From an uncultured Anaerolineales bacterium (GTDB taxonomy: Bacteria; Chloroflexota; Anaerolineae; Anaerolineales; UBA11858), in assembly GCA_964458115.1 (NCBI GenBank), contig CAYWIC010000002.1, positions 5,936 through 69,935 of the forward strand: a stretch of DNA of 64,000 nt. The letters run 5' to 3'. Shown one piece after another: positions 10,583 through 61,483 of the stretch. The notes under the pieces are model-generated. The model was not told the DNA's origin. It made no database searches and saw only the letters and a program-made list of their open reading frames with translations. The position numbers were made by a program, and so were the translations under genes. How positions within the stretch are numbered: the first letter of the stretch is position 1; every line of letters begins with the position of its first letter.

Positions 10583-10631
10583 AAAAATAGGTGTGCAGGG
10601 GGCGCAGCGCACCCCATGCACACCTATTTTT
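10583..10631. repeat. Long intergenic palindrome (family A, copy 1)
   Basis: AAAAATAGGTGTGCA...TGCACACCTATTTTT arms around GGGGGCGCAGCGCACCCC. Confidence 0.9.
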
Positions 10632-10676
10632 TGGAAATTTTCTCTCGAAGTAATATACTTTTCTATGAAAGCATAT

Positions 10677-11702
10677 ATGACCAAAACTAAAAAACTCAGA
10701 GTCGGCTTTATCGGCTGCGGCAGACATGCTACCAAGGTGCTCTACCCCAGCCTGCGTTATTCTCATATCAACCTGGTCGCCGTGTGCGATCTGGATGAGC
10801 GTCTGGCGAAACGCAACGCCCAATGGTTTGGGGCGGAAAACTATTACACAGACTACCAGCGCATGCTCAGTGAATCTCAGTTAGATGCAGTGATCATCGT
10901 CACGGGGCCTGCCAGTCATGCCAGTTTGGCAGGAGAAGTTTTGTCTCGGGATATCCCAGTATTCATAGAGAAACCCCCGGCATATACTTTGGCAGAAGCT
11001 GAGGATCTTTTGGAACTGAGTATGAGGAAGGGAATTCCCGTCACGGTCGGGATGATGAAGCGCTGGGCTCCGGCATACCAGCGAGTGAAAGCAATTATCG
11101 CAGAAAATGAATTCGGGGCAATTAGCCACATTCAGGCCACGTTCAGGGTGGGCAATAAGCTCTGCTCAGGGTATGCGCTGCTGTTAGATGCCGGTATCCA
11201 CATCCTCGATCTGGTTGACTTTCTTGGTGGCGGTATTGATTCAATCCAATGTGAAAAATACCAGGGAGAAATAGGCATTGCCTATGCCCTCACATTGCGA
11301 TTTTCAGGTGGCGCGATTGGAAATGTTCATATATCCGACCAAGGTTCCTGGTCTTATGCCAATGAGTCTGTTGAAATAACCGGCTGTGGTGCTTTTGTGC
11401 GCGCTGAGAACCTGACTTCCGTGAGCTATACTAGAAAAGACGGCACAATATCCGTTTATGATCTAGGTTTCTCGATCCCACAAAATCAAAATAATAGCCT
11501 GTTCATCCAAGGATACGCACACCAATTTCAGGCCTGGTCACAGGCTTTACTCAGTGGCAACGAGCCTGAATCGACCCTGGAGGATAGTTGTCGTGCGATT
11601 GGCCTGATTAAGACCCTTGAACCTGATCAAGAATATTCGAAGAAGCCACAGCATTTCCCACATTGGCAGGCTGAAGAAGCCTGGCTAAATGTTGAAGATT
11701 GA
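10677..11702 (+). CDS. Gfo/Idh/MocA family oxidoreductase
   Basis: RVGFIGCG Rossmann fold, EKP, DAGIHILD. The longer ORF start (10533) runs through the palindrome and is unlikely. Confidence 0.9.
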   Translation: MTKTKKLRVGFIGCGRHATKVLYPSLRYSHINLVAVCDLDERLAKRNAQWFGAENYYTDYQRMLSESQLDAVIIVTGPASHASLAGEVLSRDIPVFIEKPPAYTLAEAEDLLELSMRKGIPVTVGMMKRWAPAYQRVKAIIAENEFGAISHIQATFRVGNKLCSGYALLLDAGIHILDLVDFLGGGIDSIQCEKYQGEIGIAYALTLRFSGGAIGNVHISDQGSWSYANESVEITGCGAFVRAENLTSVSYTRKDGTISVYDLGFSIPQNQNNSLFIQGYAHQFQAWSQALLSGNEPESTLEDSCRAIGLIKTLEPDQEYSKKPQHFPHWQAEEAWLNVED

Positions 11703-11713
11703 AAGGGTGATAA

Positions 11714-12694
11714 ATGCCTGATACACATGCCAGTGTCGTAGTCAGCGGAGTGATTGTTAGCCCCGAGATCAGTCTGCACTGGGAAAAACTCAAGCAGCAA
11801 ACAGATTTGACCATCCTGGAAGAGAATACTTCTCAGGCTCTGCATCAGGCGTTGCGAGATGCTGAAGTTTTAATCATCCGCCCAATCATGCCGGTATCCA
11901 GGAAGATGATCGAAGCGGCTGATAACTTGCGGGGGATCGTTGTCTGGGGAGTGGGATATAACACTATCGATGTTCCAGCGGCAACAGAAAGCGGTCTGCC
12001 GGTGGTCACGCTGCCTGTCTTTCTGGCATCAATAGCCGAGGCGGTAGTTTATTACCTCTTTTCGATTACCAAAAAGTATCAGCACCTCAATAATTTGGCC
12101 CGAACGGGACAGCGGCCTACATTGCATGATCGCAGCGATGCGCTCGAAGGCAAAGTGTTGGGCTGCATTGGCCTGGGGCGTATCGGCAGCCGGGTAGCTC
12201 GCATTGCTCAGGCTCTTGATATGCAAGTTATTGTATTTGACCCCTTTCTAGACTCAGCACAGGTCGCTGGACGTGATCTGTCTCTAGTTTCACTCGATGA
12301 GCTGCTGAAACGATCCCATTTTGTCTCATTGCATGCACCCCTGACTGCTGAAAACCAGCATCTGATCGACGCCGTTGCCCTGGAAAAAATGCGGTCGGAT
12401 GCCTACCTCATCAATCTGGCACGGGGGGGCTTGGTGGACGAAGCTGCGTTATTCCGCGCCCTGACCGATGGCCAGATTGCCGGCGCTGCCCTGGACACTT
12501 TTGAAATTGAGCCAGTTTCTCCTGATAATCCACTCTTAACCCTGGATAATGTCTGGGCGACGCCGCATTATCTGGGAGCAACCTGGGAAGGCCTTGCTCA
12601 ATTGGCTTCAGCAGCCCAAGATGTCACTCTAAAGCTGCTAAAGGGTCAATATCCAGGATATAACATCGTCAACCCAGAAGTGTATCAAGAATAA
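11714..12694 (+). CDS. D-isomer-specific 2-hydroxyacid dehydrogenase
   Basis: GCIGLGRIG, HAPLT, NLARG, DTFEIEP, TPHY (catalytic R/E/H present). Confidence 0.92.
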   Translation: MPDTHASVVVSGVIVSPEISLHWEKLKQQTDLTILEENTSQALHQALRDAEVLIIRPIMPVSRKMIEAADNLRGIVVWGVGYNTIDVPAATESGLPVVTLPVFLASIAEAVVYYLFSITKKYQHLNNLARTGQRPTLHDRSDALEGKVLGCIGLGRIGSRVARIAQALDMQVIVFDPFLDSAQVAGRDLSLVSLDELLKRSHFVSLHAPLTAENQHLIDAVALEKMRSDAYLINLARGGLVDEAALFRALTDGQIAGAALDTFEIEPVSPDNPLLTLDNVWATPHYLGATWEGLAQLASAAQDVTLKLLKGQYPGYNIVNPEVYQE

Positions 12695-12790
12695 ATTCAA
12701 CCACTCAGGACATCGAGCGTGAATTTCCGAACAAACAGATGTGCACGGGCTGTGTAGTTGCCTCTTGCACATCTACACAGGAGCAGAACT

Positions 12791-13525
12791 ATGATTATCG
12801 ACTGCGAACTTTACTTACTCGATTTTCCAGTTGCCGGACGGATTTACACAATTCCTGACTTTGAGAATATGTTGGATGAAGCCAATATTGATAAAGCTGT
12901 GCTTATGCCTCCCATTACGCTAAAACCTGATAATCAATGGATGGTTGAGCAAATCAAAGACAACCCACGCTTTATCCCCTGCGCCATGCATAATCCTCAC
13001 TTTGGCGCTGAAGCCGTCTCCGATCTTGAAATTGGAGTGCGTGAGCGGGGTATCAAAGGCTTGAAACTTAACCCGACCAAACATGGCTTTCATGCCGCCT
13101 CTAAGCTTGTCTATCCGCTAATGGAAAAATGCGCTGAGTTAGATATTCCTGTTTCGATTCATTCTGAAGGAGGTTACGCTCACCCCCTGGTTATTGCTGC
13201 GTTAGCTAGGGCATTTCCGGATGTACCAATCATCATGGACCACATGGGGTACCGTTACTGGGTTGCTGATGCTATCGAAGCGGCGCGGCAAGCGCACAAT
13301 ATCTATCTGGCAACAACCGCGGTCATGGAACCCCATTTCATCAAGCTGGCTATTGACGATATTGGCGTGGACCGGATCGTTTTCGGCTCAAATGGCCCCA
13401 TCACAGTTCCAAGAATACAAGTAGACGTGATCAAATTCCTGGATCTTTCTCCAGAAGATGAAAACAAAATCATGGGTGGGACGCTAGAGAAATTATATAA
13501 AATTGATCAACAAGAATCATATTAA
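12791..13525 (+). CDS. Amidohydrolase_2 family protein with degenerate metal site
   Basis: Paralog-like fold motifs (IHSEG, MDHMG, RIVFGSN) but IDCELY replaces IDxHxH. Confidence 0.78.
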   Translation: MIIDCELYLLDFPVAGRIYTIPDFENMLDEANIDKAVLMPPITLKPDNQWMVEQIKDNPRFIPCAMHNPHFGAEAVSDLEIGVRERGIKGLKLNPTKHGFHAASKLVYPLMEKCAELDIPVSIHSEGGYAHPLVIAALARAFPDVPIIMDHMGYRYWVADAIEAARQAHNIYLATTAVMEPHFIKLAIDDIGVDRIVFGSNGPITVPRIQVDVIKFLDLSPEDENKIMGGTLEKLYKIDQQESY

Positions 13526-13712
13526 GTGGACTGTGGAAATACGTTTAGAGACCGCGAATGTAGCTCAGGAAAGTGCCGGGATTATCAGCTTCGCTTCCCT
13601 ACCAAAAGCAGTTCGCGGTCCTCTTTACGAGTTTGAAAAAATCCAAGCTAATCATACATCATGACTAATTGGTTGGCATGCTGACCATGGACAACATTGC
13701 CTTGGAAGTTGG

Positions 13713-13763
13713 CAGCTATGGAGGTATAGGGCGTGCGGAGCACGCCCTATACCTCCATAGCTG
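13713..13763. repeat. Long intergenic palindrome (family A, copy 2)
   Basis: Perfect 24-bp stem CAGCTATGGAGGTATAGGGCGTGC-GGA-GCACGCCCTATACCTCCATAGCTG. Confidence 0.95.
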
Positions 13764-14069
13764 GAATTCACCACAGGAAATCCCAGACTCCCAAGGCGCA
13801 TAGTATCTTTGTAAACTGGGAAGGGGATTTAATATAGGCGTTTCAGGAAACGCCGTGAAACTACCCAGATTTAGGGGAGCCCCCGAAAATTCTTATAGAC
13901 CCATAATCAAATGTTCACCAAATGATTTATTAATCATGTAAAATTGATTGGATAGAATTGAGCGCAGCCCAATTTCCAACATCTATTGCTAGCTATCTTG
14001 AAGCTCAGATCTCCGTCAACTTGTCAGACGGGGAAATCTAATGAGTTTTTACAAAGTGAGAATTATTCG

Positions 14070-16823: not shown

Positions 16824-16919
16824 TTATTGAATTTAAGATTGATCTTGAAACTATCGGTGAAAGAAAAAAGGAGTGTGAGTGGAGCTCACAATCCTTTTTC
16901 CTTTGGGTTTATGAATAAA

Positions 16920-18776: not shown

Positions 18777-18909
18777 GCTCTTTTCTCCTTAGCTTAGGGT
18801 ATACCAACATTGTTATTTTGACAAGAAATATCTGATTAATTCTAAATGAGTAATTTTCTACACATATTATCCAAATTACCTACTTTGTGCACCAAGGGTT
18901 CACTCTACA

Positions 18910-20874: not shown

Positions 20875-20894
20875 TGCTATTCTCCCTTTTAGTT

Positions 20895-26539: not shown

Positions 26540-26621
26540 CGGTGCTCCTTTGGATCTCCACTAATGTGTTGATAAATTAGTTCTAGCTGATTTGGGTCTT
26601 AGGGAAACATCGTGAGACTAT

Positions 26622-26674
26622 CCAGATTTAGGGGTGAGTGGGGTACGGAGCACCCCACTCACCCCTAAATCTGG
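26622..26674. repeat. Long intergenic palindrome (family A, copy 3)
   Basis: 23-bp stem CCAGATTTAGGGGTGAGTGGGGT / ACCCCACTCACCCCTAAATCTGG, one A.C mismatch, C-GGA-G loop. Nested in an outer imperfect IR at 26589-26708. Confidence 0.95.
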
Positions 26675-26724
26675 GGGATCACCCTGGCAATCCCTAGAGA
26701 ACCAAATCTTCGTATCTTAGTGGT

Positions 26725-30680: not shown

Positions 30681-30801
30681 AGCGCATCCCTGTTTGGTGA
30701 AATAAATTTGAAAAAGACTCCAGGCTAAATGATATTCTCGAGCCTATCAAATTGACACGACCCCAGGGTGTTATTTGGCACCCCTCTTAAGTATGGTATA
30801 T

Positions 30802-30850
30802 GGAAAAAACACTTGCTAATTCGCGGAGCGGGGGAGCAAGTGTTTTTTCC
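30802..30850. repeat. Long intergenic palindrome (family A, copy 4)
   Basis: GGAAAAAACACTTGCT...AGCAAGTGTTTTTTCC around a GCGGAGC core. Confidence 0.85.
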
Positions 30851-30873
30851 AATGGATTATGTGCGAAAACGGT

Positions 30874-32655
30874 TTATGGCGCTTCGGGCATTGGATGCGC
30901 AGCGAAGAACTCCCAGATCAGGTCGTTTACAGTAACAGCAGGCTCGAATCCTCCACCGCCAAACGTCGTTGTGGGCCAGTTATGGCCATCCAAAGCCAAA
31001 GAATATAGAATCACATCGCTATCCTCCTCGCACCCTGGCCAGATGTCTGTTGTGATCACACCACCCTTGGATACGCTCTCGACTTCGGGCGAGCAGCCAT
31101 TCCTTTCCGCCCAGGCCGCAGCCCAAACGGGAATTTCTGGCACATTGACGACCCCCTCATGGTCTGTCCCCTCGTAGGGAATGACCTCGTCTCGCAGCCC
31201 ATGAAATGAGATCACCGAGATTGGCCGATCGGGGTGGCAATCTTCCCAGTAATAGTACGCGCCTCCAACAGGAGCTATCGCTGCGATTGCCTCGGAAAGG
31301 TCACACCCCAAGCGGTTTGCCATGCCACCGCCATTCGAGAAGCCTACTGCGAAAATGCGTTGGGGATCGATGCTCAGGTGGCTATTCAGATAAATAATTA
31401 AATCCTCGACAAATTGGACATCATCGACATCGGATTGAGATTCCGCCTCGGGCAGGTCTTCCCAGGTTGTGGGTGAGCCTGTTGCCTGGGGGTACGCGAC
31501 AATGAACCCGTGCTGGTTGGCAAGCGGGTTGAGTTGGAAATATATCTCAGCGTCGAACGCATTGGAGCCGCGCCCGTGGAAGACCAGCACCAATGGCATC
31601 AAGGTGCCTTGTTCATAACCTGGTGGGATGTGCAGCTTGAAGGTGCGGTCGTGTTCACCCGAAGAGATCACATCGAAATAGTCACCTGAGACAGGGTATG
31701 CAGTCTCGGAAGCTTGAGCGGTTGTATCTGGTGCTTGCACTTCAGCCAGGCTGGTTTTTGGGTGGGCGACGAAGAAATCCCAGATGACCTCGGTGGCATC
31801 CATGGCCTGGGTGGTTCCGTTAATTTCGATAGCGAACTCGGATCCCGGCCATGAGTGCCCGGCATCGGCAATGGAGTAGAGCGCTACCAGAGTATCTCCG
31901 CGGCACGCCTCCCAGGATTCCAGAGTGAGTACATCGCTAAGGCGTTGGGTAGTTGGAACGATATTACAACCATCCCGTTCACCCCAGGCTTCAACCCAAT
32001 CGTGAACCAGGGGGTTGTTCTGGTTACCCTCGTAAGGGATGATCGAATCCAAGAGCCCGTGGATGGCCAGCACCGAAACCGCGTATTGCGCTTCGCAATC
32101 GTAATAACCAACGTGCCCGCCAGAGACAGACGCGACAGCCGCTAAAATGTCCGAGCGTGAACAGGCTAGCCGGTTGGCAAAGGAGGCGCCATTCGAAAAG
32201 CCCGTGGCATAGATTCGGGTCGAGTCGATATTGAGTTCTTCCTGCAGGTGTGCCAATAATGCATCGAAGAAGGCCATATCGGGGTCGCCGATCTCGGTAG
32301 GGACTGCGCCCCACCAGGTGGGCGGATTGTCGATTGCTTGGGGCGCAACTACCACAAACCCAGCTTCATCGGCCTTGGCGTTCATCTGGGTCATCGCTTG
32401 TTGCTGAACGGCGGTCGCTGTGCGGCCGTGGAGGTTGAACACCAATGGTATCGCGTTCTCAGGCTGATAGCCGGGGGGAATATGTAACAGGAAGATGCGT
32501 TCTGTGCCATCAATGTCCAAAGTTTCAGAATAGTCGCCGGGTCCTGTGTATTTGCTTGGGGTTGGTGAAGGGGTAGGCTCCGCTGGGACCGCGGATGGGC
32601 TGCAGGCAGTCAAGGCTGCTATAAAAATGAGGAGGAATATTGTTGTGTATCTCAT
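30874..32655 (-). CDS. Tandem two-domain PHB-depolymerase/LpqC-like esterase lipoprotein
   Basis: Lipobox LTAC; two domains each with LHG/FHG, GFSNG, GHxWP. Confidence 0.88.
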   Translation of the reverse strand: MRYTTIFLLIFIAALTACSPSAVPAEPTPSPTPSKYTGPGDYSETLDIDGTERIFLLHIPPGYQPENAIPLVFNLHGRTATAVQQQAMTQMNAKADEAGFVVVAPQAIDNPPTWWGAVPTEIGDPDMAFFDALLAHLQEELNIDSTRIYATGFSNGASFANRLACSRSDILAAVASVSGGHVGYYDCEAQYAVSVLAIHGLLDSIIPYEGNQNNPLVHDWVEAWGERDGCNIVPTTQRLSDVLTLESWEACRGDTLVALYSIADAGHSWPGSEFAIEINGTTQAMDATEVIWDFFVAHPKTSLAEVQAPDTTAQASETAYPVSGDYFDVISSGEHDRTFKLHIPPGYEQGTLMPLVLVFHGRGSNAFDAEIYFQLNPLANQHGFIVAYPQATGSPTTWEDLPEAESQSDVDDVQFVEDLIIYLNSHLSIDPQRIFAVGFSNGGGMANRLGCDLSEAIAAIAPVGGAYYYWEDCHPDRPISVISFHGLRDEVIPYEGTDHEGVVNVPEIPVWAAAWAERNGCSPEVESVSKGGVITTDIWPGCEEDSDVILYSLALDGHNWPTTTFGGGGFEPAVTVNDLIWEFFAAHPMPEAP

Positions 32656-32682
32656 GAAATTTTCCTTAATCGAGTTATCGCC

Positions 32683-32713
32683 TTTTCCCGGAATCTCACA
32701 ATTTCCGGGAAAA
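32683..32713. terminator. Intergenic inverted repeat
   Basis: TTTTCCCGGAA-N9-TTCCGGGAAAA between two esterase genes. Confidence 0.5.
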
Positions 32714-32723
32714 TATTCGGTGG

Positions 32724-33677
32724 TTACTCTGATCCAACAAATCTCTTTGGATGGGATTTAAAAAAATCCCAAATGATATCAGTGGCGTACACATCAGGAG
32801 CGGGACCGTCCAGGTAGGGACCTGGCCCAAACCCTGAGCCAGGCCAGACGTGACCGCCACCTTCAATGCTGTAAAGCACCACAGTTGCATCCCCGGTGCA
32901 ATCTTCCCAGGATTCCACTTTGATGGCTGCCTGGGACTGTTCGGTCTCAGGCGTCAAAGCACATTGATTGCGCTGTGCCCAGGCTGCCACCCAGGCAGGG
33001 ACCGATGGAAGATAACCTCCATCTCCCAGGTATGGAATGATGTGGTCTTCGGTGCCATGGATAGCCAGCACAGCTACCGGGAATGCTGGCTCGCAGGTCT
33101 CCATTTGCGGATGGGCGCCCGCGACCACGGCGATAGCGGAGATCTTCTCTGACATCACACACGCCAGGCGATTGGCCATGGCCCCGCCATTTGAGAAGCC
33201 AGTCACGTAAATCCGGGCAGGATCGATGCTGTGCTGACTTTCCAGAGTGGCGATCAACTCTTCAAAGAATACCAGATCTTCCTGACCCTTTGGTCCTGGG
33301 GCTGGCCACCAGGTTGCTGGCTCTCCCAACGCCTGGGGAGTGACAACGATGAAGCCGTGTTGATCTGCCTGAAGGCTCATTTGGCTGATCTGATCATGCT
33401 GGGCGATGTCACTGCCGCGCCCGTGCAGATTGAGCACCAGAGGGTGGGGTACGCCAGACTGATATCCGGCAGGTATGTGGGTGACAAACTCCCGGTTGGT
33501 TCCGTTCACGCTGAGCGTTCCATAGTGATCCCCCGGCGGACGATGATATTCCTTTGGGATGGGAGTGTATGCTGGCTGCAGTGTAGCGATTTTCGAGGTG
33601 CTTTGGCATCCAAACATGCAAGAGCAAGCCCATGCAATGATGAGTAGTACTGGCAAATGAAGTTTACTTTTTATCAC
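32724..33677 (-). CDS. Single-domain PHB-depolymerase/LpqC-like esterase lipoprotein
   Basis: NLHG, GFSNGG, HGTED, GHVWP. N-terminal signal ending ...MFGC. Confidence 0.88.
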   Translation of the reverse strand: MIKSKLHLPVLLIIAWACSCMFGCQSTSKIATLQPAYTPIPKEYHRPPGDHYGTLSVNGTNREFVTHIPAGYQSGVPHPLVLNLHGRGSDIAQHDQISQMSLQADQHGFIVVTPQALGEPATWWPAPGPKGQEDLVFFEELIATLESQHSIDPARIYVTGFSNGGAMANRLACVMSEKISAIAVVAGAHPQMETCEPAFPVAVLAIHGTEDHIIPYLGDGGYLPSVPAWVAAWAQRNQCALTPETEQSQAAIKVESWEDCTGDATVVLYSIEGGGHVWPGSGFGPGPYLDGPAPDVYATDIIWDFFKSHPKRFVGSE

Positions 33678-33766
33678 TATCCTTTTTACCTGATCCGCAA
33701 GTATTAATCAAATTTCTGTCATCCTGAGCCGCCCAATCCGCTTCAAGTGCGTAACTCCGTATTGTT

Positions 33767-35578
33767 TCACTCTTCAGAAGACCGTGGGTTTGCCTCGAAG
33801 AACTCCCAAACCACATCCGTGGCGTTGATCTGAGATTCGACATTCTCGCGGAAAACGGCCACTGAGGAGCCTGGCCAGACATGCAGACCACCAATGCGAG
33901 AGATCAACTGGACAGTGACATCCTCATCACACCCCACCCAAGTTTCGATCTTGAGCGATGGGTCTGGATGTTCGACCTGGGGTTCGGGTTGGCAGCCGTT
34001 GCGTTGAGCCCAGTACTCCACCCAAAGGTGTACCGGAGGGACTTCGTCCCCGCGGCCTTCGTAGGGGATGGTGGGATCATCCGTGCCGTGAATGACCAGC
34101 ACAGAAACAGGACGCTCGATATTGCAGTTGGCGAAGTCGGTGTGACCGCCTGCTATCGGGGCGATTCCGGCAAAGGTCTCAGACATGAAGCAGCCCAGAG
34201 CATTGCTCATGGTGCCGCCGTTGGAAATTCCCGTAGCGTAGATGCGCGCCGGGTCGATATTGATCAAGGCTTGCAGATAGGCCATCAGCACCACAAAGAA
34301 ATCCTTATCAGCTTGGCCGTGAAGCCCTGGCAGCGGACCATGCCAGGAAGCAGGCTCTCCCAGGGCTTGCGGGTGAACGACGATAAAGCCTTCTTGATCG
34401 GCTTTGGCGTTCATACTTGTATATTCCTGCTGGTCGAACATGGTGCCGGTATAGCCATGCAAGTTGATCATCAGAGGTGTGGGGATTTCGGGGTCGTACC
34501 CGAGGGGGATGTGGACCGTGAACCAGCGCGTATAGCCATCTACGGGGAGCATATCGACGTAGTCGCCGGGATTCTGATAGCGGGCCAATAATACAGGATC
34601 GATGGTCGGTTCGGAGATGACGATATCGGACTTGGGATGCGCTTCGAAGAATTCCCAGATCACATCAGTAGCGTAAAGGTCGGGTTCCAGGCCAGCCTCG
34701 TAGGGACCAGGTCCGTAGGCTGAGCCGGGCCATTCGTGCAGCCCGCCCTTGACGGTGTAAAAGGTCACCAGGGAGTCTCCCGCACAATTACTCCAGGTTT
34801 CTTGTAGAAAGTCTTGATTGTCCTGGTCGATGCTGGGGGACAGATCACAGCCATTTGATTCGGCCCACGCTTCCACCCAGTCATGAACAGCCGGTGTATT
34901 TCGTTGCGCGTCCCCCTCAATAGGGATCGTGCCGTCATCTGTACCATGCATCACCAGCACCGAGACCGGCTTCTCCAACAGGCAGCCCCCGGAATGGGCA
35001 TTCCCGGCCGCGATGGGCGCGATAGCGGCGATCTTGTCAGACAGGATGCAGCCTAGATGGTTGGTCATCGTGCCGCCGTTGGAGATCCCGGTGATGTAGA
35101 TGCGGGCGGAGTCAATGCTCATCTCCTCGCTAAGATATTCGATCATCTCCTCGAAAAAGTGATTGTCATTGGCACTGGCTGGGCCGGAGACGGGGCCCAA
35201 CCAGGTGGCCGGTTCGTGCAGCGCTTGGGGGTAGACCAGCAGGAAGCCCGCCTGGTCGGACTTGGCGTTCATGTGGCTGCGGTTGGCTTGCCCGTGAGCC
35301 GACCCGCCAGCCCCATGCAGATTGAATAGCAGGGGAGTGAGTTCGCCGGGCTGGTAACCGGGCGGGACGTGCAGCAGAAAAGTGCGCTCCATCCCATATA
35401 CCGTGATGACAACGGTGTAGTCACCGGGGATCTGGTATTGTTGGACAATCTCGGGAGTGGTGTTTGGTTCCATGTGGGACACTTCTGTCAGCGGTTCTTC
35501 CAAATCATCAGTTGGGCTACAACCGGAAAGGAATAAAATTGCGATGCAGAGAATGATGATCAATGATTTGTGATTCAT
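33767..35578 (-). CDS. Tandem two-domain PHB-depolymerase/LpqC-like esterase lipoprotein
   Basis: Lipobox LSGC; two GISNGG nucleophile motifs, HGTDD x2, LHEWP/LHVWP. Confidence 0.88.
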   Translation of the reverse strand: MNHKSLIIILCIAILFLSGCSPTDDLEEPLTEVSHMEPNTTPEIVQQYQIPGDYTVVITVYGMERTFLLHVPPGYQPGELTPLLFNLHGAGGSAHGQANRSHMNAKSDQAGFLLVYPQALHEPATWLGPVSGPASANDNHFFEEMIEYLSEEMSIDSARIYITGISNGGTMTNHLGCILSDKIAAIAPIAAGNAHSGGCLLEKPVSVLVMHGTDDGTIPIEGDAQRNTPAVHDWVEAWAESNGCDLSPSIDQDNQDFLQETWSNCAGDSLVTFYTVKGGLHEWPGSAYGPGPYEAGLEPDLYATDVIWEFFEAHPKSDIVISEPTIDPVLLARYQNPGDYVDMLPVDGYTRWFTVHIPLGYDPEIPTPLMINLHGYTGTMFDQQEYTSMNAKADQEGFIVVHPQALGEPASWHGPLPGLHGQADKDFFVVLMAYLQALINIDPARIYATGISNGGTMSNALGCFMSETFAGIAPIAGGHTDFANCNIERPVSVLVIHGTDDPTIPYEGRGDEVPPVHLWVEYWAQRNGCQPEPQVEHPDPSLKIETWVGCDEDVTVQLISRIGGLHVWPGSSVAVFRENVESQINATDVVWEFFEANPRSSEE

Positions 35579-35641
35579 TGTAAGTGTCCTTTCTAGTGTC
35601 AATATTGTTGGAGCAGAGGAACTCCTGTGGTATGGGATATC

Positions 35642-35690
35642 CGCTGGAATATGGGGGTGATGGCGTAGCCACCACCCCCATATTCCAGCG
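35642..35690. repeat. Long intergenic palindrome (family A, copy 5)
   Basis: CGCTGGAATATGGGGGTG-A-TGGC-GTA-GCCA-C-CACCCCCATATTCCAGCG. Confidence 0.93.
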
Positions 35691-35701: not shown

Positions 35702-36637
35702 TTAAGGTAGTGATTTTCCATCCATCGCGCAGCGGAAGCCGATGCTGTTCTCGTATTTATCCGGTAAATACCAGTTGCGGAACGGGTTGCGTGCGTGACC
35801 GCGAGCGGTGTCCCAACTGGCGCCGCGCAGCACGCGGTAGGTTTCTTTGGCGTCGGAGTTGGGATGCTCCAGCCATTCATGACCTTCATAGAGGGCATGC
35901 CAGTCCCAGTTCCACTCCCAGACGTTGCCCAGCATATCCAATGCGTCGATCCAGCTTGTGCCTGTGGGGTAATTGCCCACGGGAGATGTGTCTGCAAAGC
36001 CATCATTGCCGCTGGGGTCAGGGTGGGGCATATCGCAGTTGGCGTCACAGTAGTTGGCCAGGGTGCTATCGAACTCATTTCCCCAAGGATAGTACAGAGA
36101 ATTTGGTCCACGGGCGGCGAAAGCCCATTCAGCTTCCAAGGGCAGGCGCGCGCCAGCCCAAGTGCAATATGCCACGGCCTGATACCAGGTCACGTTGATT
36201 ACGGGAAACGCTGCAAATGCTGGATCATCATAATATGCGCTTCGTGTTCTGGAACTGTAATCCTTGGGAGCAGAACAGTGCCCGGCGTGCACGCAGAGGT
36301 CGTATTGGGCGTTGGTGACTTCGGTCTGGTCTAGCCAGAAGGCATCGACAGCCACTTGATGGTGTGGGTATTCATTCTCGTAGATCCTGACACCCATGGC
36401 TGCGCCATCATCATCTTCTGAGCCCATCAGGAAATCCCCCGCGGGAACGTAAACCATGACCATGTCATCAGCCCCTCGAGTTTGGGTGGCACCAATCTCA
36501 AATGTAATTTCCGATACCCCTTCTGTGGAAATAGGGTGTGCGGCCCGTGGTATTGTGCCACACCCACCTATCCCCAACACCAGGAGGAGAAGTATCCAAA
36601 AGCATTTGACAATCGTATCTTTCATCTTGCTATGCAT
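35702..36637 (-). CDS. FGE-sulfatase (SUMF1/EgtB/PvdO) domain lipoprotein
   Basis: Lipobox IGGC; FLMG, EVTNAQY, PVINVTW, RLPLEAEW, GNVWEW, RGASW, IGFRC. Confidence 0.9.
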   Translation of the reverse strand: MHSKMKDTIVKCFWILLLLVLGIGGCGTIPRAAHPISTEGVSEITFEIGATQTRGADDMVMVYVPAGDFLMGSEDDDGAAMGVRIYENEYPHHQVAVDAFWLDQTEVTNAQYDLCVHAGHCSAPKDYSSRTRSAYYDDPAFAAFPVINVTWYQAVAYCTWAGARLPLEAEWAFAARGPNSLYYPWGNEFDSTLANYCDANCDMPHPDPSGNDGFADTSPVGNYPTGTSWIDALDMLGNVWEWNWDWHALYEGHEWLEHPNSDAKETYRVLRGASWDTARGHARNPFRNWYLPDKYENSIGFRCAMDGKSLP

Positions 36638-36855
36638 ACCAATAATGAGCTTTGTATGTTCAGTTATCAACGAATCACTATCTCGCTGCCCCGGCAAAGG
36701 AGTGCAGGGAGAAATGGTTACCGAATATCTATATAATATTGGTGTCTCCTTGTTAAAACCGAATTATTCTTGGATAACAACCTTTATCGGCTCTCTAGTG
36801 CACAACCGGCGCAGATGGTTTGAAAAATGTTGTCGTTCAAATTGATTGATGTTCA

Positions 36856-38606: not shown

Positions 38607-38693
38607 CCCTCACCCTACCCCTCTCCCATTGGGAGAGGGGACAAATAGGGATATTGCAACTCCCTCTCTTTAGGGAGATGGCAGGGGTGAGGG
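38607..38693. repeat. CCCTCACCC...GGGTGAGGG palindromic repeat (family B)
   Basis: CCCTCACCC-TA-CCCCTCTCCC-ATT-GGGAGAGGGG ... GGGTGAGGG. Confidence 0.88.
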
Positions 38694-40392: not shown

Positions 40393-40579
40393 AGTTCACT
40401 CCTCTGTTGAAATTCTACTGATCTCGTTCAAGTTTTGTTCAATATTATAGGGAGAGATATTTACATTTCAATGTCGCCCTGGCGTCATTATGGCGTCATA
40501 TGCCTTTTTCGCGCAAAAATCGTTTAGGTTTCTTGAGGCATATATTATTTAGTTAGGGGTTACGTGCTTGAGGCTTGGT

Positions 40580-40631
40580 TTGCTGGGAACAGGGGGTGGG
40601 GGCAAAGCCCCCCGCCCCCTGTTCCCAGCAA
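40580..40631. repeat. Long intergenic palindrome (family A, copy 6)
   Basis: TTGCTGGGAACAGGGGG...CCCCCTGTTCCCAGCAA with C-AAA-G loop. Lies between divergent genes. Confidence 0.92.
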
Positions 40632-40729
40632 TTTCCTCGCTGAACTTCGTGAAAGGTTATTGATAGGTACTATCCGGTGTAAAACCGAAATTATGATATA
40701 TGATTATTTAAACACTTCAATCCATCCAG

Positions 40730-43449: not shown

Positions 43450-43637
43450 GAGGTTTATTCTGGCCGATACCATCCTTAATGCTACAGAAGGAGAGCCGTG
43501 TGAAGTTTCGAGCGTGCACCAAGCTTCTGGGTTGGTCAGATTGGAATTGTTCATCGCAAATATACGAAGATTGTGCAGTGGAATTTACTCGCTGTCAAAA
43601 ATACGCTTGACAACGAGTAAATTCCCCACAGACTGAA

Positions 43638-44066: not shown

Positions 44067-44070
44067 CCTT

Positions 44071-44859: not shown

Positions 44860-44920
44860 TTGACAATTTAGAAAAAACTAATAGAATTAGCTAAAACTAA
44901 TAATGTTAGAAAAAACTAAT
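44860..44920 (+). promoter_or_regulatory. Sigma70-like promoter with three 15-bp operator-like repeats
   Basis: TTGACA 44860-65, TAGAAT 44882-87; TTAG(AA/CT)AAAACTAAT at 44868, 44887, 44906 (19-bp period). Confidence 0.7.
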
Positions 44921-44932
44921 CATATTAGAAAT

Positions 44933-45600: not shown

Positions 45601-46188
45601 ATGTCCCGCATCAAAACAATCTCACCCGAAAATGCTTCTGGTGTGCGCCGATTTATGGTACGTATACTCAAGCGGCAATATGGTGGATTTCTCCCAGGGA
45701 TTATGAGGGTTGCATTAGTCGATATGAAAGTCGGCCGCCTAACGGGAAACATCTACCAGCATTTACATTTACGAAAGAACTCTCCGCTGACGCGCCTGCA
45801 GCGTGAGATGATCGCCACTGTTGTCAACGGGGTGATCGGCGGCGCGCCCTGACTGGGTTTGCATACGGCGGCAGTTCGCCGCCTCACTGGAGACGAACAC
45901 CTTTCTCACGAGTTTGCTACAACCTGGCCAACATACGATTTAAATCCCCAGACCAAAGCCATGTTAGCGTACGCCAAGAAACTGACCGAGATGCCAGCCT
46001 TTATCGACGACGCAGATATCGAAGATCTACGCACAACTGGATGGGATGAGGATGCCATCTATGAAGCCACCGCCCTGGTATCATTTTTCAACTATTCTGG
46101 TCGTATGGAAGCCGCCTCTGGCCTCCCGATGGATGAAGTTCCCGCGGATGCCAAGTTTGCTGAAGCAACCCCTGATAATCGCAATTAA
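45601..46188 (+). CDS. AhpD/peroxidase-related protein with in-frame TGA (probable selenocysteine, U84)
   Basis: ORFs 45577-45852 and 45859-46188 are in the same frame. The TGA at 45850-52 sits in REMIATVVNGVIGGAP-U-LGLH, aligning with family EmIAvvVS..NgCxYCxxxH. GGAGGT RBS precedes 45601. Confidence 0.8.
45853..45890 (+). promoter_or_regulatory. Putative bacterial SECIS element
   Basis: GGCGGC-AGTTC-GCCGCC stem-loop. The loop begins 20 nt after TGA and has G in its second position. Confidence 0.6.
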
Positions 46189-46216: not shown

Positions 46217-46270
46217 GTGAAAAAATAGGCGTGTGCGGCGCTTTGCGCCAGCAAGCACCTATTTTTTCAC
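46217..46270. repeat. Long intergenic palindrome (family A, copy 7)
   Basis: GTGAAAAAATAGG...GGCGC-TTT-GCGCC...CCTATTTTTTCAC between convergent genes; may also terminate transcription. Confidence 0.88.
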
Positions 46271-46279: not shown

Positions 46280-47230
46280 TCACCCATTTTTGACACTTTC
46301 ATACGCCTCTCTAATCACCTCTGCGCTGGCGTGCAGGGCTGCTTCTTCCGACTTGTTCAAAGACAGGGGGAGTAAGATCGTATCCAAGATACCTTGCCCG
46401 CCCACCAGGTGCGGCAGCGACAGGGTCACATTAGCAACGCCGGCCACATCAGGAACTGGTGTACAGACCGTCAGCAGGGCGCGCTGGTCTTTGAGAATGA
46501 CTTCAACGATCCTGGTGAGAGCGCTGCCGATGCCGTACGAGGTGCTGCCTTTGCCTTCGATGATGTGGTAAGCCGCGCTGCGTACTCGCTGCTCGATATC
46601 GGCGCGCACGGCTTCATCAGTGCAAATATCCCATTGGCGGCAGAACTCCTCCAGGGGCACTCCTCCCACCGTCACCAGAGACCAGGGAAAGACCTCTGAG
46701 TCACCATGTTCCCCCAACACATAGCCATGCACGTGGGGTGGGTCGACTCCCAAGTGACCCCCCAGTAAAGCGCGAAAACGGGCAGTGTCCAGCGTTGTCC
46801 CCGAGCCGATCACCCGCGAGCGGTGGATCCCATACTTATCAGCGATGTCAGCGGTGAGGTGCGTCATCACATCAACCGGGTTGGTCGCGACCAGGATGAT
46901 CGCATCCCGGGCGAATTCCAACACCTGGGGAACGATCTGGTTGAAGATCGCGGCATTGCGAGAGAGCAATTCCAACCTGGTTTCCCCTGGATTCTGCGCC
47001 ACCCCGGCGGTTATCACCACCACTTTGCTGCCTGCCAAATCCGAATAGTCCCCTGTGGACACGCGCACCGGATGGGCAAAAGGCACTGCGTGAAGAATAT
47101 CATCGGCCTCGGCCAGTGCGCGTTGCTGGTTGAGATCGACCAAAACGATTTCACGTACCACTCCACGCATGACCATAGCATACGCGGCTGTAGCGCCGAC
47201 AGCGCCTGCTCCGATAATCCCTACTTTCAT
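46280..47230 (-). CDS. ldh: L-lactate dehydrogenase
   Basis: [52 protein letters not shown]. Confidence 0.94.
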
Positions 47231-48477: not shown

Positions 48478-48492
48478 GGTGCTTCGAGGGCC

Positions 48493-48849: not shown

Positions 48850-48875
48850 TATTTGCTCCTGATAATCAATTTATA

Positions 48876-48937
48876 ACCGGAGATGAACAGAGATGAACGG
48901 GATAAGAATCTTTCTTTCGTTCATCCCATTCATCTCT
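48876..48937. repeat. AGATGAAC tandem/inverted repeat hairpin
   Basis: GGAGATGAACAGAGATGAACGGGAT...CGTTCATCCCATTCATCTC. Confidence 0.6.
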
Positions 48938-48948
48938 AGTATTTAAAT

Positions 48949-50187: not shown

Positions 50188-50225
50188 GGGCGTTATTCTA
50201 TCCTGAAATGCAAACAGGAGACTTA

Positions 50226-50924: not shown

Positions 50925-51003
50925 TATGTGTATGATTATATAATATATTAAAATATTATATGATCATATTACCGTTAAAGATGATGTCTGTCAAGTGGTG
51001 TGA

Positions 51004-51056
51004 CCAGATTTTGGCGTACATGGGGTGATCCGTATTCTATGCACGCCAAATTCTGG
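51004..51056. repeat. Long intergenic palindrome (family A, copy 8, degenerate centre)
   Basis: CCAGATTTTGGCGT...ACGCCAAATTCTGG plus the conserved tail GGGATCACCCCGGCAATTCTTAGAG. Lies between divergent genes. Confidence 0.85.
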
Positions 51057-51232
51057 GGGATCACCCCGGCAATTCTTAGAGCAACCGCAATATTCAATAT
51101 AGGTAAATGCATTGCGCGATATACTTGAAGATCGGAGCATCATTGTTGATGTTACGGCATTCATTCGATATTGAAGCTTTCTGCGGATACGGTAGTGAAA
51201 GTTGCTATTCGCTGAAATGAAAGGGAACCAAA

Positions 51233-52027: not shown

Positions 52028-52029
52028 AG

Positions 52030-53190: not shown

Positions 53191-53265
53191 TTTAACCTGC
53201 AGGGGGCCAATTTGAAAAATGTCATTTTATATCCTTATCACATGATTCCATTGGTAAAAAGATGC

Positions 53266-54183: not shown

Positions 54184-54229
54184 TTCGGTATCTCCTTTGG
54201 GTTGGACCTTGATCTTAGAATCGGCTTCC

Positions 54230-55258: not shown

Positions 55259-55315
55259 TTTTTAAATGATGTTAGATTTGAAGCACAACTTGTGAAAAGT
55301 TTGTAATGCTTACGC

Positions 55316-56110: not shown

Positions 56111-56318
56111 TTTATATTTATTAGATTCTTTCCGATATTTAGGACCCGACACTTTTGTTTTGGACGCTGATTTACGCAGATATTCATGATTTTTGGGGGA
56201 TTTTCAATTTATTTTCACACATCAAATCTGAGAAAATCTGCATCCTATTTGAAAACTGTCAGGTTGATAGTCCAAGATTAGAAGCTCGATTTATATTTGA
56301 GAGAAACTCCAATGGCTC

Positions 56319-57143
56319 TCAGGCATTTTGCCATTCAACTGAATGTACACAAATTGCATGATCAAATCCCTTAGGAGTGAATTCTTCAAATTCAGAGAAT
56401 CGAATACCCACGTTTCTACAGAAATCTTTCACCTCTGGGGCGACAAGTATCTGATTCGCATCGGCATGATCACAAAGGCGTGCGGCTAAATTGACAGCAG
56501 CTCCAAAAAGATCACCACCATCTTCTATGGGTTCGCCGGTTGTCATGCCTATCTTGAGATACAGAGAATCTTCGGGGTTTTCCTGGTTGTGGGTATTAAA
56601 CGCTTTTTGAATAGCTATGGCACATTCGACCGCATTCGGCACCGATGCGAAGGATGCCAAAAAACCATCACCGGTATGTTTGACTTCATTCCCTTGGAAT
56701 TCCCGGAGAATGTTTCTGGTAAGCAAATTGTGCACATGGAGCAGATGCAAAGCTCTAGAATCACCTAATTCTGTAGACATGCGAGTCGAATCTTTTAGAT
56801 CTGTGAACATGATTGTCCGAAAAGCAGAATCAATTGGTATCTCCCCCGTAGATTCGACTGGGTTAGGGTCCTTGACCCTGCCGAGGAAAGCCTCCACAAT
56901 GGTGGGATCAACTTCGATGATCTCATGAGGGACCGATCCATGGGCTTCGTCATGGGCATTCTGGATGGTTTCTTTGTCGGGAGCATCAACCAGGCAGAAG
57001 GCTGTGCTACGGGCATCATCGAACCAATAGGTCAAGAATTTAACGCTATGTTTATCTTGGATTACAAGATCCTTTTCGTGAGCGTCCGCGATGGCATGTT
57101 TTGATGCACCTTCAATAAAATGACGATCCATATAGATAGGCAT
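56319..57143 (-). CDS. DUF4242 (SCO4226-like) + class III adenylate/guanylate cyclase
   Basis: N-terminal YMDRH...AFCLVDAP...AHG..PHEI; FTDLKDST, KHTGDG, DLFGAAVNLAARL. Confidence 0.88.
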   Translation of the reverse strand: MPIYMDRHFIEGASKHAIADAHEKDLVIQDKHSVKFLTYWFDDARSTAFCLVDAPDKETIQNAHDEAHGSVPHEIIEVDPTIVEAFLGRVKDPNPVESTGEIPIDSAFRTIMFTDLKDSTRMSTELGDSRALHLLHVHNLLTRNILREFQGNEVKHTGDGFLASFASVPNAVECAIAIQKAFNTHNQENPEDSLYLKIGMTTGEPIEDGGDLFGAAVNLAARLCDHADANQILVAPEVKDFCRNVGIRFSEFEEFTPKGFDHAICVHSVEWQNA

Positions 57144-57154
57144 GGCGAGTCTCC

Positions 57155-57670
57155 TTAGAATGTAATGTATTGCGAAATAGCCATACCAATCAACGAAATG
57201 GACACCAGGATTGTGGAAGCAATCCCATCTTTGCTGAGTTTATCTGCCAGATGCTTCATTTCTGCAAGCTGCTCTGGTTGTGGTGGACCGCTTGTAGCAG
57301 CAATTTCATCCGATAGGGCTTTCATGTGTTTTCCGGTAGGCTGCTGGTTCAAGATTCCCATAACCCAGGCGATTGCACCCGCCAAAGAACCCAGCGTAAG
57401 TGTTAGTCCGCGGCCCGAGACGATAAAGGATCCCCGGAAACCCGATAGCATCCAATAGAGCACAAATCCTGAGAGAAATGTCAACGTTGCGGCAACGGCC
57501 ATATACGGATGAAACTTCGAGCGCGTATTTAGCTTTTGCATGAACAATCGAACGGATTCGTCATCTTGCGCCATTGGGGCGATGATACTCGCGACGAAAA
57601 ATGCTGCGCCAGCCCAGGCTACCCCCGCGAAAATATGTACTATCCTAAGAATAATTACCAGTGCAGCCAT
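57155..57670 (-). CDS. Hypothetical membrane protein (DUF2269/CopD-like)
   Basis: LRIVHIFAGVAWAG plus 4 TM segments. Confidence 0.65.
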   Translation of the reverse strand: MAALVIILRIVHIFAGVAWAGAAFFVASIIAPMAQDDESVRLFMQKLNTRSKFHPYMAVAATLTFLSGFVLYWMLSGFRGSFIVSGRGLTLTLGSLAGAIAWVMGILNQQPTGKHMKALSDEIAATSGPPQPEQLAEMKHLADKLSKDGIASTILVSISLIGMAISQYITF

Positions 57671-57764
57671 TTCGATCTCCTTATATGACAAATAGGATAA
57701 TATCTATCCTATAATAACACAAATGTTACATTTTTGGTTCTCTGGGAATTTCATGGTGAACTCA

Positions 57765-57813
57765 AGATTTGAGGATAAGGGGTGTGCGGAGCACGCCCCT
57801 TATCCTCAAATCT
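57765..57813. repeat. Long intergenic palindrome (family A, copy 9)
   Basis: AGATTTGAGGATAAGGGG-T-GTGC-GGA-GCAC-G-CCCCTTATCCTCAAATCT, inside outer IR 57736-57843. Lies between divergent genes. Confidence 0.95.
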
Positions 57814-57877
57814 ACTCACTTCCGCGGTGATTCCTAGAGAGCCTACATCTTTGGCGTGCGATCATAGAAATGTTTAG

Positions 57878-60001
<2,124 letters not shown>

Positions 60002-60072
60002 CATATCCTGGACTCTGAACTAAACTTCCTCCATATATTATTGATTGACGAACGCACATTCGGACTAGTTTC

Positions 60073-60124
60073 CGAAATTTGGGGGTGCAGGCGGGGTTCC
60101 ACCCGCCTGCACCCCCAAATTTCG
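60073..60124. repeat. Long intergenic palindrome (family A, copy 10)
   Basis: Perfect 23-bp stem CGAAATTTGGGGGTGCAGGCGGG / CCCGCCTGCACCCCCAAATTTCG. Confidence 0.95.
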
Positions 60125-60180
60125 ATTTTCTTGTATGCGATGTGATTGTAGTCAATGTTAGCTATTATTCGAGGTGTAAA

Positions 60181-61389
60181 ATGGATTTGATCAAGAACAA
60201 CGACGCGGTTACGCGCCGGGTTGCCGCCATGGTGGACCGGGTAGCGGGGATGAAGGAAAACGACGAGTATTACTACAATATGCCAGTGACTGAAATGCGT
60301 GGCGGGTCCAAGGTAATGGTGGACGGCCGTGAGATGGGGATGTACGCCTCCTACAGTTACCTGGGTTTGGTAGGTCATCCGCGCATTAACAAAGCTGCCC
60401 AAGACGCTGTGGCAAAATACGGGACTGGCACGCACGGTGTCCGCACTTTAGCGGGCACTTTGGATTTGCATCGCGAGTTGGAAGATACGATTGCCGAATT
60501 CAAGAACGCCGAAGCTGCAGTGACGTACACCTCAGGGTATGTCACCAACCTGACGGCAATCTCTACCCTGGTGGGTCGTGGTGATTATGTTTTCTCAGAT
60601 AAACTCAATCACGCCAGCATCGTTGATGGCTGCATGACCTCGGGGGCCAAATTCCGCCGTTTCAAGCACAACGATATGGAAAGCCTAGAGCGCATGGTGG
60701 CCAGCGCGCCTGCCGACGCAGCGAAACTGGTCGTGGCAGATGCAGTCTTTAGTATGGATGGTGATATCATCGACCTGCCGCGCATGGTGGAGATCTGCCA
60801 GAAGTACGACGCCTGGCTGATGATGGACGAGGCCCATTCGGTAGGAGTTTTGGGAAAGAATGGACGTGGCATCGAAGAGCACTTCGATATGCCAGGCACA
60901 GTCGATATCAAGATGGGCACCCTGAGCAAGACCATCCCTTCGGTGGGCGGCTATATCGCCGGCAAGAAGGATATGATCACGTATTTGCGACACGCCAGCC
61001 GGGCCTATATCTTCTCGGCGGCGCTGCCTCCCGCACAGGCTGCGGCGGCAAAAGAAGCCTTCAAGGTCATCCTGGATGAACCCTGGAGGATCGAGAAACT
61101 CAATGCCAATACCGAGCAGTTCATCGGGGGCTTGAAGGCGCGCGGCTTCGATACCATGTTAACCGAGACTGCTATTGTGCCGGTCTTGTGCGGCGCAGAT
61201 GAGACTGCTTATGCGGTCACCCGTCACGCCCAGAAGAACAATCTCTTTGTGCTGCCGGTGGTCTCGCCAGCTGTACCGGTAGGCCTAGCACGTTTGCGGG
61301 CGACGGTATTGGCCTCGCACGAGCCGGATGATATTGAATACGCCATGGATGTGATTGCTGAGGCGGGGAAGGATATTGGGATCATATAG
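60181..61389 (+). CDS. PLP-dependent alpha-oxoamine synthase family (BioF/Kbl/serine palmitoyltransferase-like)
   Basis: SYLGL, NHASIVDG, FSMDGD, DEAHS, GTLSK. Confidence 0.9.
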   Translation: MDLIKNNDAVTRRVAAMVDRVAGMKENDEYYYNMPVTEMRGGSKVMVDGREMGMYASYSYLGLVGHPRINKAAQDAVAKYGTGTHGVRTLAGTLDLHRELEDTIAEFKNAEAAVTYTSGYVTNLTAISTLVGRGDYVFSDKLNHASIVDGCMTSGAKFRRFKHNDMESLERMVASAPADAAKLVVADAVFSMDGDIIDLPRMVEICQKYDAWLMMDEAHSVGVLGKNGRGIEEHFDMPGTVDIKMGTLSKTIPSVGGYIAGKKDMITYLRHASRAYIFSAALPPAQAAAAKEAFKVILDEPWRIEKLNANTEQFIGGLKARGFDTMLTETAIVPVLCGADETAYAVTRHAQKNNLFVLPVVSPAVPVGLARLRATVLASHEPDDIEYAMDVIAEAGKDIGII

Positions 61390-61432
61390 CATATAAACGT
61401 GCAAACGCACACCGTTATGATGAGAAAAAAAG

Positions 61433-61483
61433 AAAAAAATGGGTGCGTGAAAGCGCAAAGCGCTTTCACGCACCCATTTTTTT
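61433..61483. repeat. Long intergenic palindrome (family A, copy 11)
   Basis: Perfect 24-bp stem AAAAAAATGGGTGCGTGAAAGCGC-AAA-GCGCTTTCACGCACCCATTTTTTT. Confidence 0.95.

Follow-up and report, generated by a model that had tools for sequence, protein, structure and literature searches.

ISL3-type miniature elements with co-varying palindromic arms, and terminator-like hairpins, in the genome of an uncultured Anaerolineales bacterium

The long hairpins of the window

The 64,000-nucleotide stretch of DNA considered here (hereafter 'the window'; contig CAYWIC010000002.1) comes from an uncultured bacterium of the order Anaerolineales and is ordinary chromosomal DNA, with ligA, sugar-utilisation genes, a P-type ATPase, esterases and regulators. 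An inverted-repeat scan of its 64 kb yields 13 long hairpins. Eleven of them had been listed in an earlier sequence-only reading as one dispersed family that an HUH-type nuclease, encoded elsewhere, might maintain; all of these were recovered as inverted repeats, and the hairpins at 16860 and 43580 are added to them. The 13 hairpins are of two kinds and do not form one family: seven are the cores of miniature inverted-repeat transposable elements (MITEs), which fall into at least three or four unrelated shells, and these had been lumped with terminator-like hairpins. As the earlier reading had noted for RAYT/TnpA, no transposase is encoded in the window, neither by the Pfam labels of all called genes nor in a tblastn search with an ISL3 transposase.

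Perfect stems are present at 13713 and 61433 (24 bp each) and at 26622 and 60073 (23 bp each), while the 23-bp stems at 35642, 40580 and 57765 contain one mismatch and that at 10583 contains two. The perfect or near-perfect stems of 23-24 bp reported earlier are thus borne out at eight sites; the remaining three are weaker than described, namely 30801 (17-bp stem, 17-nt loop), 46217 (20 bp, 3 mismatches, 14-nt centre) and 51004 (18 bp, 2 mismatches). The distribution of perfect stems in the window is bimodal: seven stems of 8 bp, two of 9, one each of 10 and 11, and two of 13 bp are followed by a gap and then by two stems of 23 and two of 24 bp. In ten first-order Markov shuffles of the window no stem longer than 13 bp occurred, so that the upper mode of this distribution lies above the shuffle maximum.

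At every site the 5' arm is G/T-rich (G:C = 3.6:1) and the 3' arm C/A-rich, which, the sequences being palindromic, holds for both strands; a 19-bp hairpin of ordinary composition at 43580..43625 (no strand assigned), located between convergent genes and probably a terminator, stands outside this G-rich set. The arm sequences do differ between copies, as had been claimed, yet they are not unrelated, since a GGGGTG-like motif is usual in the 5' arms. Ten of the 13 hairpins come after a gene 3' end. The hairpins at 40580, 51004 and 57765 were confirmed to lie between divergently transcribed genes, and all three are MITEs.

F1, a MITE of ISL3 type

The hairpins at 13713, 26622, 51004 and 57765 have about 30 nt in common on either side, and we define family F1 by these four hairpins together with the shared flanks; hairpin and flanks of each copy combine into a 110-nt imperfect palindrome. 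A full copy of 110 bp occupies 26594..26703 on the minus strand, between two minus-strand genes, with its alpha arm on the right in plus-strand coordinates and a perfect 23-bp core stem at 26622-26674; its assignment follows from an nhmmer score of 100 bits, from the ends of its terminal inverted repeats and from alignment. The second full copy (108 bp, 57736..57843, plus strand; core hairpin 57765-57813) is bordered by the target-site duplication TACATTTTT / TACATCTTT and sits between the divergent promoters of gene 57155-57691(-) and ligA. At 13683..13792 (minus strand) a perfect 24-bp core (13713-13763) is accompanied by a degenerate beta-side terminal repeat, and at 50977..51086 (minus strand, between divergent genes) a degenerate copy with an eroded beta side still has its alpha arm and, in decayed form, its core (51004-51056; 18 bp, 2 mismatches); the left ends of both are approximate. 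The fifth copy in the window, at 13836..13902 (plus strand), was not on the earlier list: it is a core-deleted derivative in which both arms are kept and the palindrome is gone, and it resembles copies in the collected loci L196, L241 and L150. Beside the degenerate copy, just upstream of the start of a GGDEF gene, a cluster of overlapping A+T-rich palindromes (TATGATTATATAATATATTAAAATATTATATGATCATA) was observed at 50931-50982.

In its proper orientation F1 reads as follows: an 8-bp duplication, the terminal repeat GGTTCTCTGGGAATTGCCGTGG, about 10 nt, CAGATTT and 16-17 bp of variable stem make up the left half, and a loop of 0-7 nt, the complementary arm, AAATCTG, about 10 nt, the inverted terminal repeat and the same 8-mer make up the right half. 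The element is non-coding and mostly 107-110 bp long, with terminal inverted repeats of 22-24 bp and a central palindrome of 23-26 bp; core-less or apex-less derivatives are represented by L203, L150, L196 and window 13836-13902. Our copy set comprises 58 unique full-length copies from the collected loci of at least six metagenome-assembled genomes (MAGs) of Anaerolineales and other Chloroflexota.

F1 is a MITE of the ISL3 type, and thus of a kind already known. Among the 29 copies whose ends were set automatically, the flanking 8-mers (73% A+T) agree in at least six of eight positions in 19, ten of them perfectly, compared with 1.9% of mismatched controls. An autonomous element of 1401 bp was found in a Chloroflexales MAG (L191 2883-4283; ends GGCTCTTTGGGAATTGCCGTGG / GGCTCTTCAGGAATTGCCGTGG), where inverted terminal repeats 1.4 kb apart surround a gene and the target-site duplication ATTCTTGT is present on both sides. 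The 428-residue product of this gene matches DDE_Tnp_ISL3 with E = 5e-64, and also Zn_ribbon_ISL3 and HTH_Tnp_ISL3, and the terminal repeat of the element is identical to the alpha arm of F1 in 20 of 22 positions. Taken together, terminal repeats matching ISL3, 8-bp duplications and the empty sites described below suggest that an ISL3-type DDE transposase, with its gene outside the window, mobilises F1 in trans. The HUH-type nuclease proposed earlier is contradicted as mobiliser of this main family by the 8-bp duplications and by the terminal repeats shared with an ISL3 DDE element. On the same grounds, and in view of ordinary chromosomal neighbours in both orientations, derivation from HUH/RAYT systems, from IS200/IS605 or from integron attC sites was rejected; IS200/IS605-derived elements (PATE) in particular do not match the single central palindrome, the terminal inverted repeats and the variable, A+T-rich duplications of 8 bp seen in F1.

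A scan of 185,579 species genomes with the F1 pattern returned 65 matches, with 15 in the MAG CAYTKR01 and 14 in the long-read MAG CAWFZT01; the remainder are scattered singletons about equal in number to a rough chance estimate (~45). Further copies were located by profile search at contig ends of relatives. A scan for the terminal repeat gave, among the matches listed, many Chloroflexota MAGs, from Anaerolineales, Caldilineaceae, Chloroflexales, Thermoflexia and Herpetosiphonaceae. Many matches outside the Chloroflexota were dismissed as a conserved coding stretch, probably of gyrA (GGTTCTTCAGGAATTGCCGTGGGTATGGC...). A gammaproteobacterial MAG (L155, L156, L231, L236, L237, L248) contains several full ISL3 elements with the near-identical terminal repeat GGCTCTTTGGGAATTGCCGGGG, and the end sequence is therefore common to different phyla.

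Presence/absence polymorphism, as the sequence-only reading had envisaged, is evident around ligA. The closest species representative is CAYTKR01 (locus L001; LigA identity 92%). In the window and in L001, F1 follows directly after AAATGTTACA, between the divergent promoters upstream of ligA, and in L005 and L009 the spacer is uninterrupted; downstream of ligA, a second element, F3 (see below), is present in the window and L001 and absent from L002-L011. At the upstream site, the window (57736-57843) and L001 (2652-2766) have the same target duplication and about 95% identity in the surrounding spacer, and the copies belong to different F1 subfamilies, which could be due to replacement, hot-spot re-insertion or ectopic conversion. 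The ligA loci of the closer relatives (L001-L008 and L010) contain long G-first hairpins, which are seldom seen in about 70 loci from more distant Anaerolineales. A genome scan with an HI0933-like protein led to four relatives in which gene order around 40580, 46217 and 51004 is different, so that they show no more than the lack of an element there, and a metagenome scan with the P-type ATPase of the 13713/16860 neighbourhood gave no usable orthologous loci, the best full-length match among those listed having 66% identity. All contigs matched in exact-protein look-ups come from the same population (99.9-100% identical), and among these no hairpin polymorphism was seen except for two single-nucleotide polymorphisms (SNPs) in the hairpin at 60073. 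Several contigs from this population or from relatives end inside hairpins (L253 at window position 61470, L254 at 61447, L346 at 13731) or start there (L351 at 61450), and contig ends at such hairpins recur in L002, L006, L097 and L145; since short-read contigs stop inside the hairpins, the elements evidently break assemblies.

Paired change of the core arms

In 32 F1 copies, 711 core pairs comprise 97.6% Watson-Crick pairs, 1.3% G.T and 1.1% other combinations (nine G.T versus eight other mismatches), and each of core positions 7-22 is occupied by two to four different Watson-Crick pairs. Among all 58 copies the stem measures 23-26 bp in 40; 33 stems are perfect and 22 have one mismatch. Comparison of 15 copies from a single genome reveals 27 two-sided and only 3 one-sided changes in the core helix. 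In the outer helices, into which the terminal repeats of the same copies fold, two-sided change was seen once and one-sided change 13 times, and about 17 pairs were broken. The core is compensated without evolving faster: in pairwise comparison, core and terminal repeats are equally diverse (0.18-0.24 versus 0.16-0.19 in one genome; 0.28 versus 0.31-0.35 in the other set), and the notion of a hypervariable core was rejected. Conservation is highest at the base of the stem, CAGATTT, and in the inner arm, GGTGAACTCC, with pairwise differences of 0.04-0.07.

As the outer arms of a pair of copies diverge, the number of two-sided core differences climbs (0.4, 2.5, 2.8 and 6.5 per copy pair) and that of one-sided differences stays flat at 0.7-1.0. 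At about 15% outer divergence, some 11.5% of the core pairs have changed as a unit, which is about 0.75 of the outer-arm rate. A ratio near one is expected where half of all new mutations are transferred to the opposite arm, and change by two independent hits under selection would proceed far more slowly, so that the ratio favours arm-to-arm copying. With respect to the asymmetric outer arms, asymmetric loops are found either way round (GGA in 8 and TCC in 10 copies; GTA in 3 and TAC in 4), L137 and L113 possess identical 25-bp arms around inverted loops, and ten copies have no spacer at all. The earlier proposal that structure is kept while sequence is rewritten symmetrically is well supported by these data, and arm-to-arm copying, as judged from the substitution patterns, is most likely the best explanation of the symmetric change.

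Template switching within quasipalindromes is an established source of mutation in E. coli (PMC7202029), and it has been proposed to create and keep perfect stems, to cause multi-base compensatory changes and to invert loops (PMC8794818). For F1, a nascent strand would, during replication, fold back on itself, or cross over to the other nascent strand, and use one arm as template for its partner. A mutation in either arm would then soon be erased or copied across, and the pair would change as a unit at about the rate of a single site; an occasional cross-strand switch would leave the loop inverted. Correction would halt at the outer arms, which are only about two-thirds complementary, because the strand could not return to its template there. 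Such a process would account for the Watson-Crick-only pairing, for the transient nature of mismatches and for the restriction of correction to the core.

Accompanying elements, rival readings and known systems

Three further hairpins without assigned strand belong with the MITE cores. F2, a MITE-like element of about 107 bp at 40553..40659 (ends TTAGGGGTTACG... / ...CGTGAAAGGTTA; core 40580-40631), lies between divergent genes and has related copies in L087 (4894-4988), L001 (9894-9991) and L107. F3 is a 115-bp insertion at 60043..60157 with inverted ends ATTGAC..CACAT(T)CG and a core hairpin at 60073-60124; it separates a conserved promoter (TTGACA-N17-TAAACT) from the aminotransferase start codon and is thus located in the 5' untranslated region (UTR). 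Of three SNPs between the window and L254, a 9.4-kb contig from another sample, two (60099 and 60123) are located in the 52-nt F3 hairpin, one each in loop and stem, and may reflect a local mutation hot spot or an assembly error. The hairpin at 35642..35690 (23 bp, 1 mismatch, without T-tract) lies 12 nt past the stop codon of 35702-36697(-); its core resembles those of a fourth MITE family, F4, which was found in L004 (5814) and L008 (8583 and 21390) with the terminal inverted repeat GAGTCCACTGAAAAAAC, and its flanks are not in common with that family.

Five other hairpins, likewise without assigned strand, share an A-tract before the G+C stem and a T-tract directly after it (5-7 T in 8 nt). 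These are 10583..10631 (AAAAATAGG...CCTATTTTT; 23 bp, 2 mismatches), 47 nt past the stop codon of an SDR gene; 16860..16904 (20-bp stem, A and T tracts), between convergent genes for a P-type ATPase and an FtsH-like protein and absent from the earlier list; 30801..30851 (GGAAAAAACAC...GTGTTTTTTCC; 17-bp stem, 17-nt loop), 23 nt past the stop of 30874-32655(-); 46217..46270 (GTGAAAAAATAGG...CCTATTTTTTCAC), between the convergent genes 45859-46188 (+) and LDH 46280-47230 (-); and 61433..61483 (AAAAAAATGGG...CCCATTTTTTT; perfect 24-bp stem), 44 nt past the aminotransferase stop. All are located 12-72 nt past stop codons or, in two cases (16860 and 46217), between convergent genes. Their stems of 17-24 bp, the A:T part included, compare with 8-15 bp for terminators elsewhere in the window and in relatives; with the exception of 61433 they are less perfect than MITE cores, and they display the same G-first style. 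Nowhere in the analysed sequence are their flanks repeated, and at the 61433 site five relatives possess short, unrelated terminators, a pattern also seen in the spacer after the HI0933-like gene. In the post-aminotransferase spacer of L001 (6317-6404), L007 and L008 (13430-13481), short AACGT-type repeats (AACGTGAAAACGTTTAACGTTAGAACGTT) precede a short terminator. The A-tract/T-tract layout and the position at gene 3' ends suggest that all five serve as intrinsic terminators in both directions, their stems being unusually long. The sequence-only reading had named a U-tract and a gene 3' end as marks of ordinary terminators, and these are seen at its sites 10583, 30802, 46217 and 61433.

To regard all of the hairpins as ordinary Rho-independent terminators, with long stems as a habit of the lineage, is very improbable in our judgement, although 10 of 13 do follow a gene 3' end, five have the textbook layout, and other terminators occupy equivalent places in relatives. 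Only 2-3 T are present in the 8 nt after the stems at 13713, 26622, 51004, 57765, 40580, 60073 and 35642, where CCCC is followed by TAAATCT, AAAATCT, AAATTTCG, TGTTCCC or ATATTCC; three hairpins lie between divergent promoters and one in a 5' UTR downstream of a conserved promoter; and for the MITE class the proposal is refuted by F1 target duplications and empty sites together with terminal inverted repeats, so that the earlier view of these hairpins as more than terminators is upheld. Spread by a RAYT (HUH, Y1) transposase in the manner of REP/REPIN elements would agree with intergenic, palindromic, multi-copy and clade-restricted sequences, and with the long overall hairpin and compensated stems reported for REPINs. 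However, 8-bp duplications and terminal inverted repeats of 22-24 bp are hallmarks of DDE enzymes, Y1 enzymes make no duplications, and neither a conserved GTAG-like 5' tetranucleotide (two F1 alignments inspected) nor a Y1 transposase among the window genes (Pfam labels) was seen; the proposal is contradicted for F1 and, overall, we give it hardly any credence. Equally hard to believe is that F1 represents structured small RNA genes or cis-regulatory RNAs, as a conserved long imperfect hairpin with covarying pairs, sometimes in 5' regions, might suggest: the window has no Rfam match at gathering thresholds (the best on an F1 copy, DUF3800-IV, reaches 27 bits versus 60.7), a conserved promoter is lacking, copies bordered by target duplications turn up in both orientations and in intergenic settings of every kind, and pairing is Watson-Crick only, with almost no G.U, unlike in RNA stems.

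The main rival concerns the maintenance of the palindrome. Perfect pairing might be kept by selection and not by templated copying, the copies being young snapshots of many active lineages; selection could act on the element, if a cruciform joins terminal repeats about 60 bp apart in the transposase complex, or on the host, if the hairpin serves as an insulator or in RNA. That target duplications are still recognisable (~3% decay per site) indicates fairly young copies, one-sided mismatches do persist in 22 of 58 copies, and the strong conservation of CAGATTT and GGTGAACTCC suggests function. Two independent hits per pair would, however, be much slower than the observed ~0.75 of the outer-arm rate, G.T intermediates are not in excess, loop inversions require a DNA rearrangement in any case, and a single mismatch in a 24-bp stem should barely affect an RNA hairpin, so that we consider selection a possible but unlikely explanation. 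Rather unlikely, too, is the more far-reaching idea that the ~50-nt G-first palindrome is a self-perfecting module, kept exact and flipped by template switching and acquired, or converged upon, by the F1-F4 shells and the terminators; on that proposal the palindrome may be needed for mobility, for example as a cruciform uniting terminal repeats only about 60 bp apart. We favour, as the probable overall account, two kinds of hairpin, that is, MITE cores (with F1 moved by ISL3) and long terminators, with the palindromes kept by template switching.

Several observations weigh against this favoured account. An autonomous ISL3 element with F1 ends was found neither in the window nor in the collected loci of the closest relatives, and for F2 and F3 neither a transposase nor a clear target duplication was identified. 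An automated terminator scan did not discriminate (26 found versus 19.6 expected) and missed the long hairpins; its output being close to shuffle level, T-tracts were read directly from the sequence, and the putative terminator role is accordingly one of hairpin anatomy. Template switching is likewise deduced from patterns that selection for a perfect palindrome could mimic, the F1 copies are not phylogenetically independent, and the outer arms may be under constraint. Moreover, the common core style (A/T-rich base, GGGGGTG-like motif, G+C apex, G on the 5' arm, ~23-25 bp) extends over unrelated MITE shells and terminators and may stem from common descent, capture or convergence.

Other repeats were encountered along the way. 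A second, C-first palindromic repeat (CCCTCACCC..CCCCTCTCCCATTGGGAGAGGGG..GGGGTGAGGG; window 38607-38693, L004 4403-4447, L337 7469-7513 and 16836-16880) looks like another dispersed family, and similar hairpins (TCTCCCAAGGGGAGA..) are present in a relative. Three tandem 19-nt direct repeats (TTAGAAAAAACTAATAGAATTAG) at 44868-44928, in a divergent region beside a TetR-family gene, probably form an array of operators. The stretch 30874-35602 is filled by three paralogous esterase/lipoprotein genes in a row, two of them internally duplicated, giving five repeat units with a spacing of ~0.85-1.0 kb.

For annotation, the striking perfect hairpins of this uncultured Chloroflexota genome can be entered as MITEs and terminators, with a named transposase family and without a new class of element. 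The elements break short-read assemblies and can occupy promoters and 5' UTRs, as they do upstream and downstream of ligA. What is notable about F1 is that the two arms of its palindrome change together. Its dispersed copies constitute a natural replicate experiment, in which paired change at about the single-site rate, the lack of mismatch build-up, loop inversion and the decay of the outer arms provide unusually clean field evidence for templated arm-to-arm correction, and the pattern is relevant to the origin of perfect stems and of 'compensatory' substitutions generally.

Among known systems, the Correia elements of Neisseria, ERIC/IRU and the RUP and BOX MITEs are imperfect palindromes, 100-150 bp in length, that lie between genes, bear terminal repeats and are present in some strains and absent from others; they can affect transcription or RNA stability, and their transposase families and target duplications differ from those of F1. 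We know of no report of an element of this type with a perfectly self-complementary centre that evolves by two-sided changes and loop inversion. F1 shares with REP and REPIN sequences the intergenic palindromic repeats, the long hairpins and the pairing maintained between copies, but REPs have neither the terminal inverted repeats of insertion sequences nor a target duplication, and it is a Y1 (HUH) enzyme on which they rely. IS200/IS605-derived elements (PATE) differ from F1 in that they have a subterminal hairpin at each end, lack terminal inverted repeats as well as duplications, and insert 3' of a fixed tetranucleotide. The five T-tract hairpins are built like bidirectional intrinsic terminators, in that a G+C stem past a stop codon has an A-tract on its 5' side and a T-tract on its 3' side, and depart from the usual terminators here (8-15 bp) in their length of 17-24 bp and in the G-first style of MITE cores. 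The nearest counterpart of F1 is an ISL3-type MITE of Microcystis aeruginosa, 187 nt long with GGCTCTTCG ends and 8-nt repeats (PMC11448079). The two agree in ends that start GGCTCTT/GGTTCT and match ISL3, in 8-nt duplications and in being non-coding, multi-copy and able to form a stem-loop; F1 is shorter (108-110 bp) and comes from uncultured Anaerolineales and other Chloroflexota, and its perfect palindromic centre of 23-26 bp, with co-varying arms and a flipping loop, is not described for the Microcystis MITE in the text consulted. Template switching at quasipalindromes (PMC7202029; PMC8794818) predicts just what F1 shows, namely that imperfect inverted repeats become perfect, that several pairs change at once and that loops are inverted, in this case by an inter-strand route; such correction is known from E. 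coli and yeast reporters and from the histories of RNA genes, and here it would act on dozens of dispersed natural copies of a MITE.

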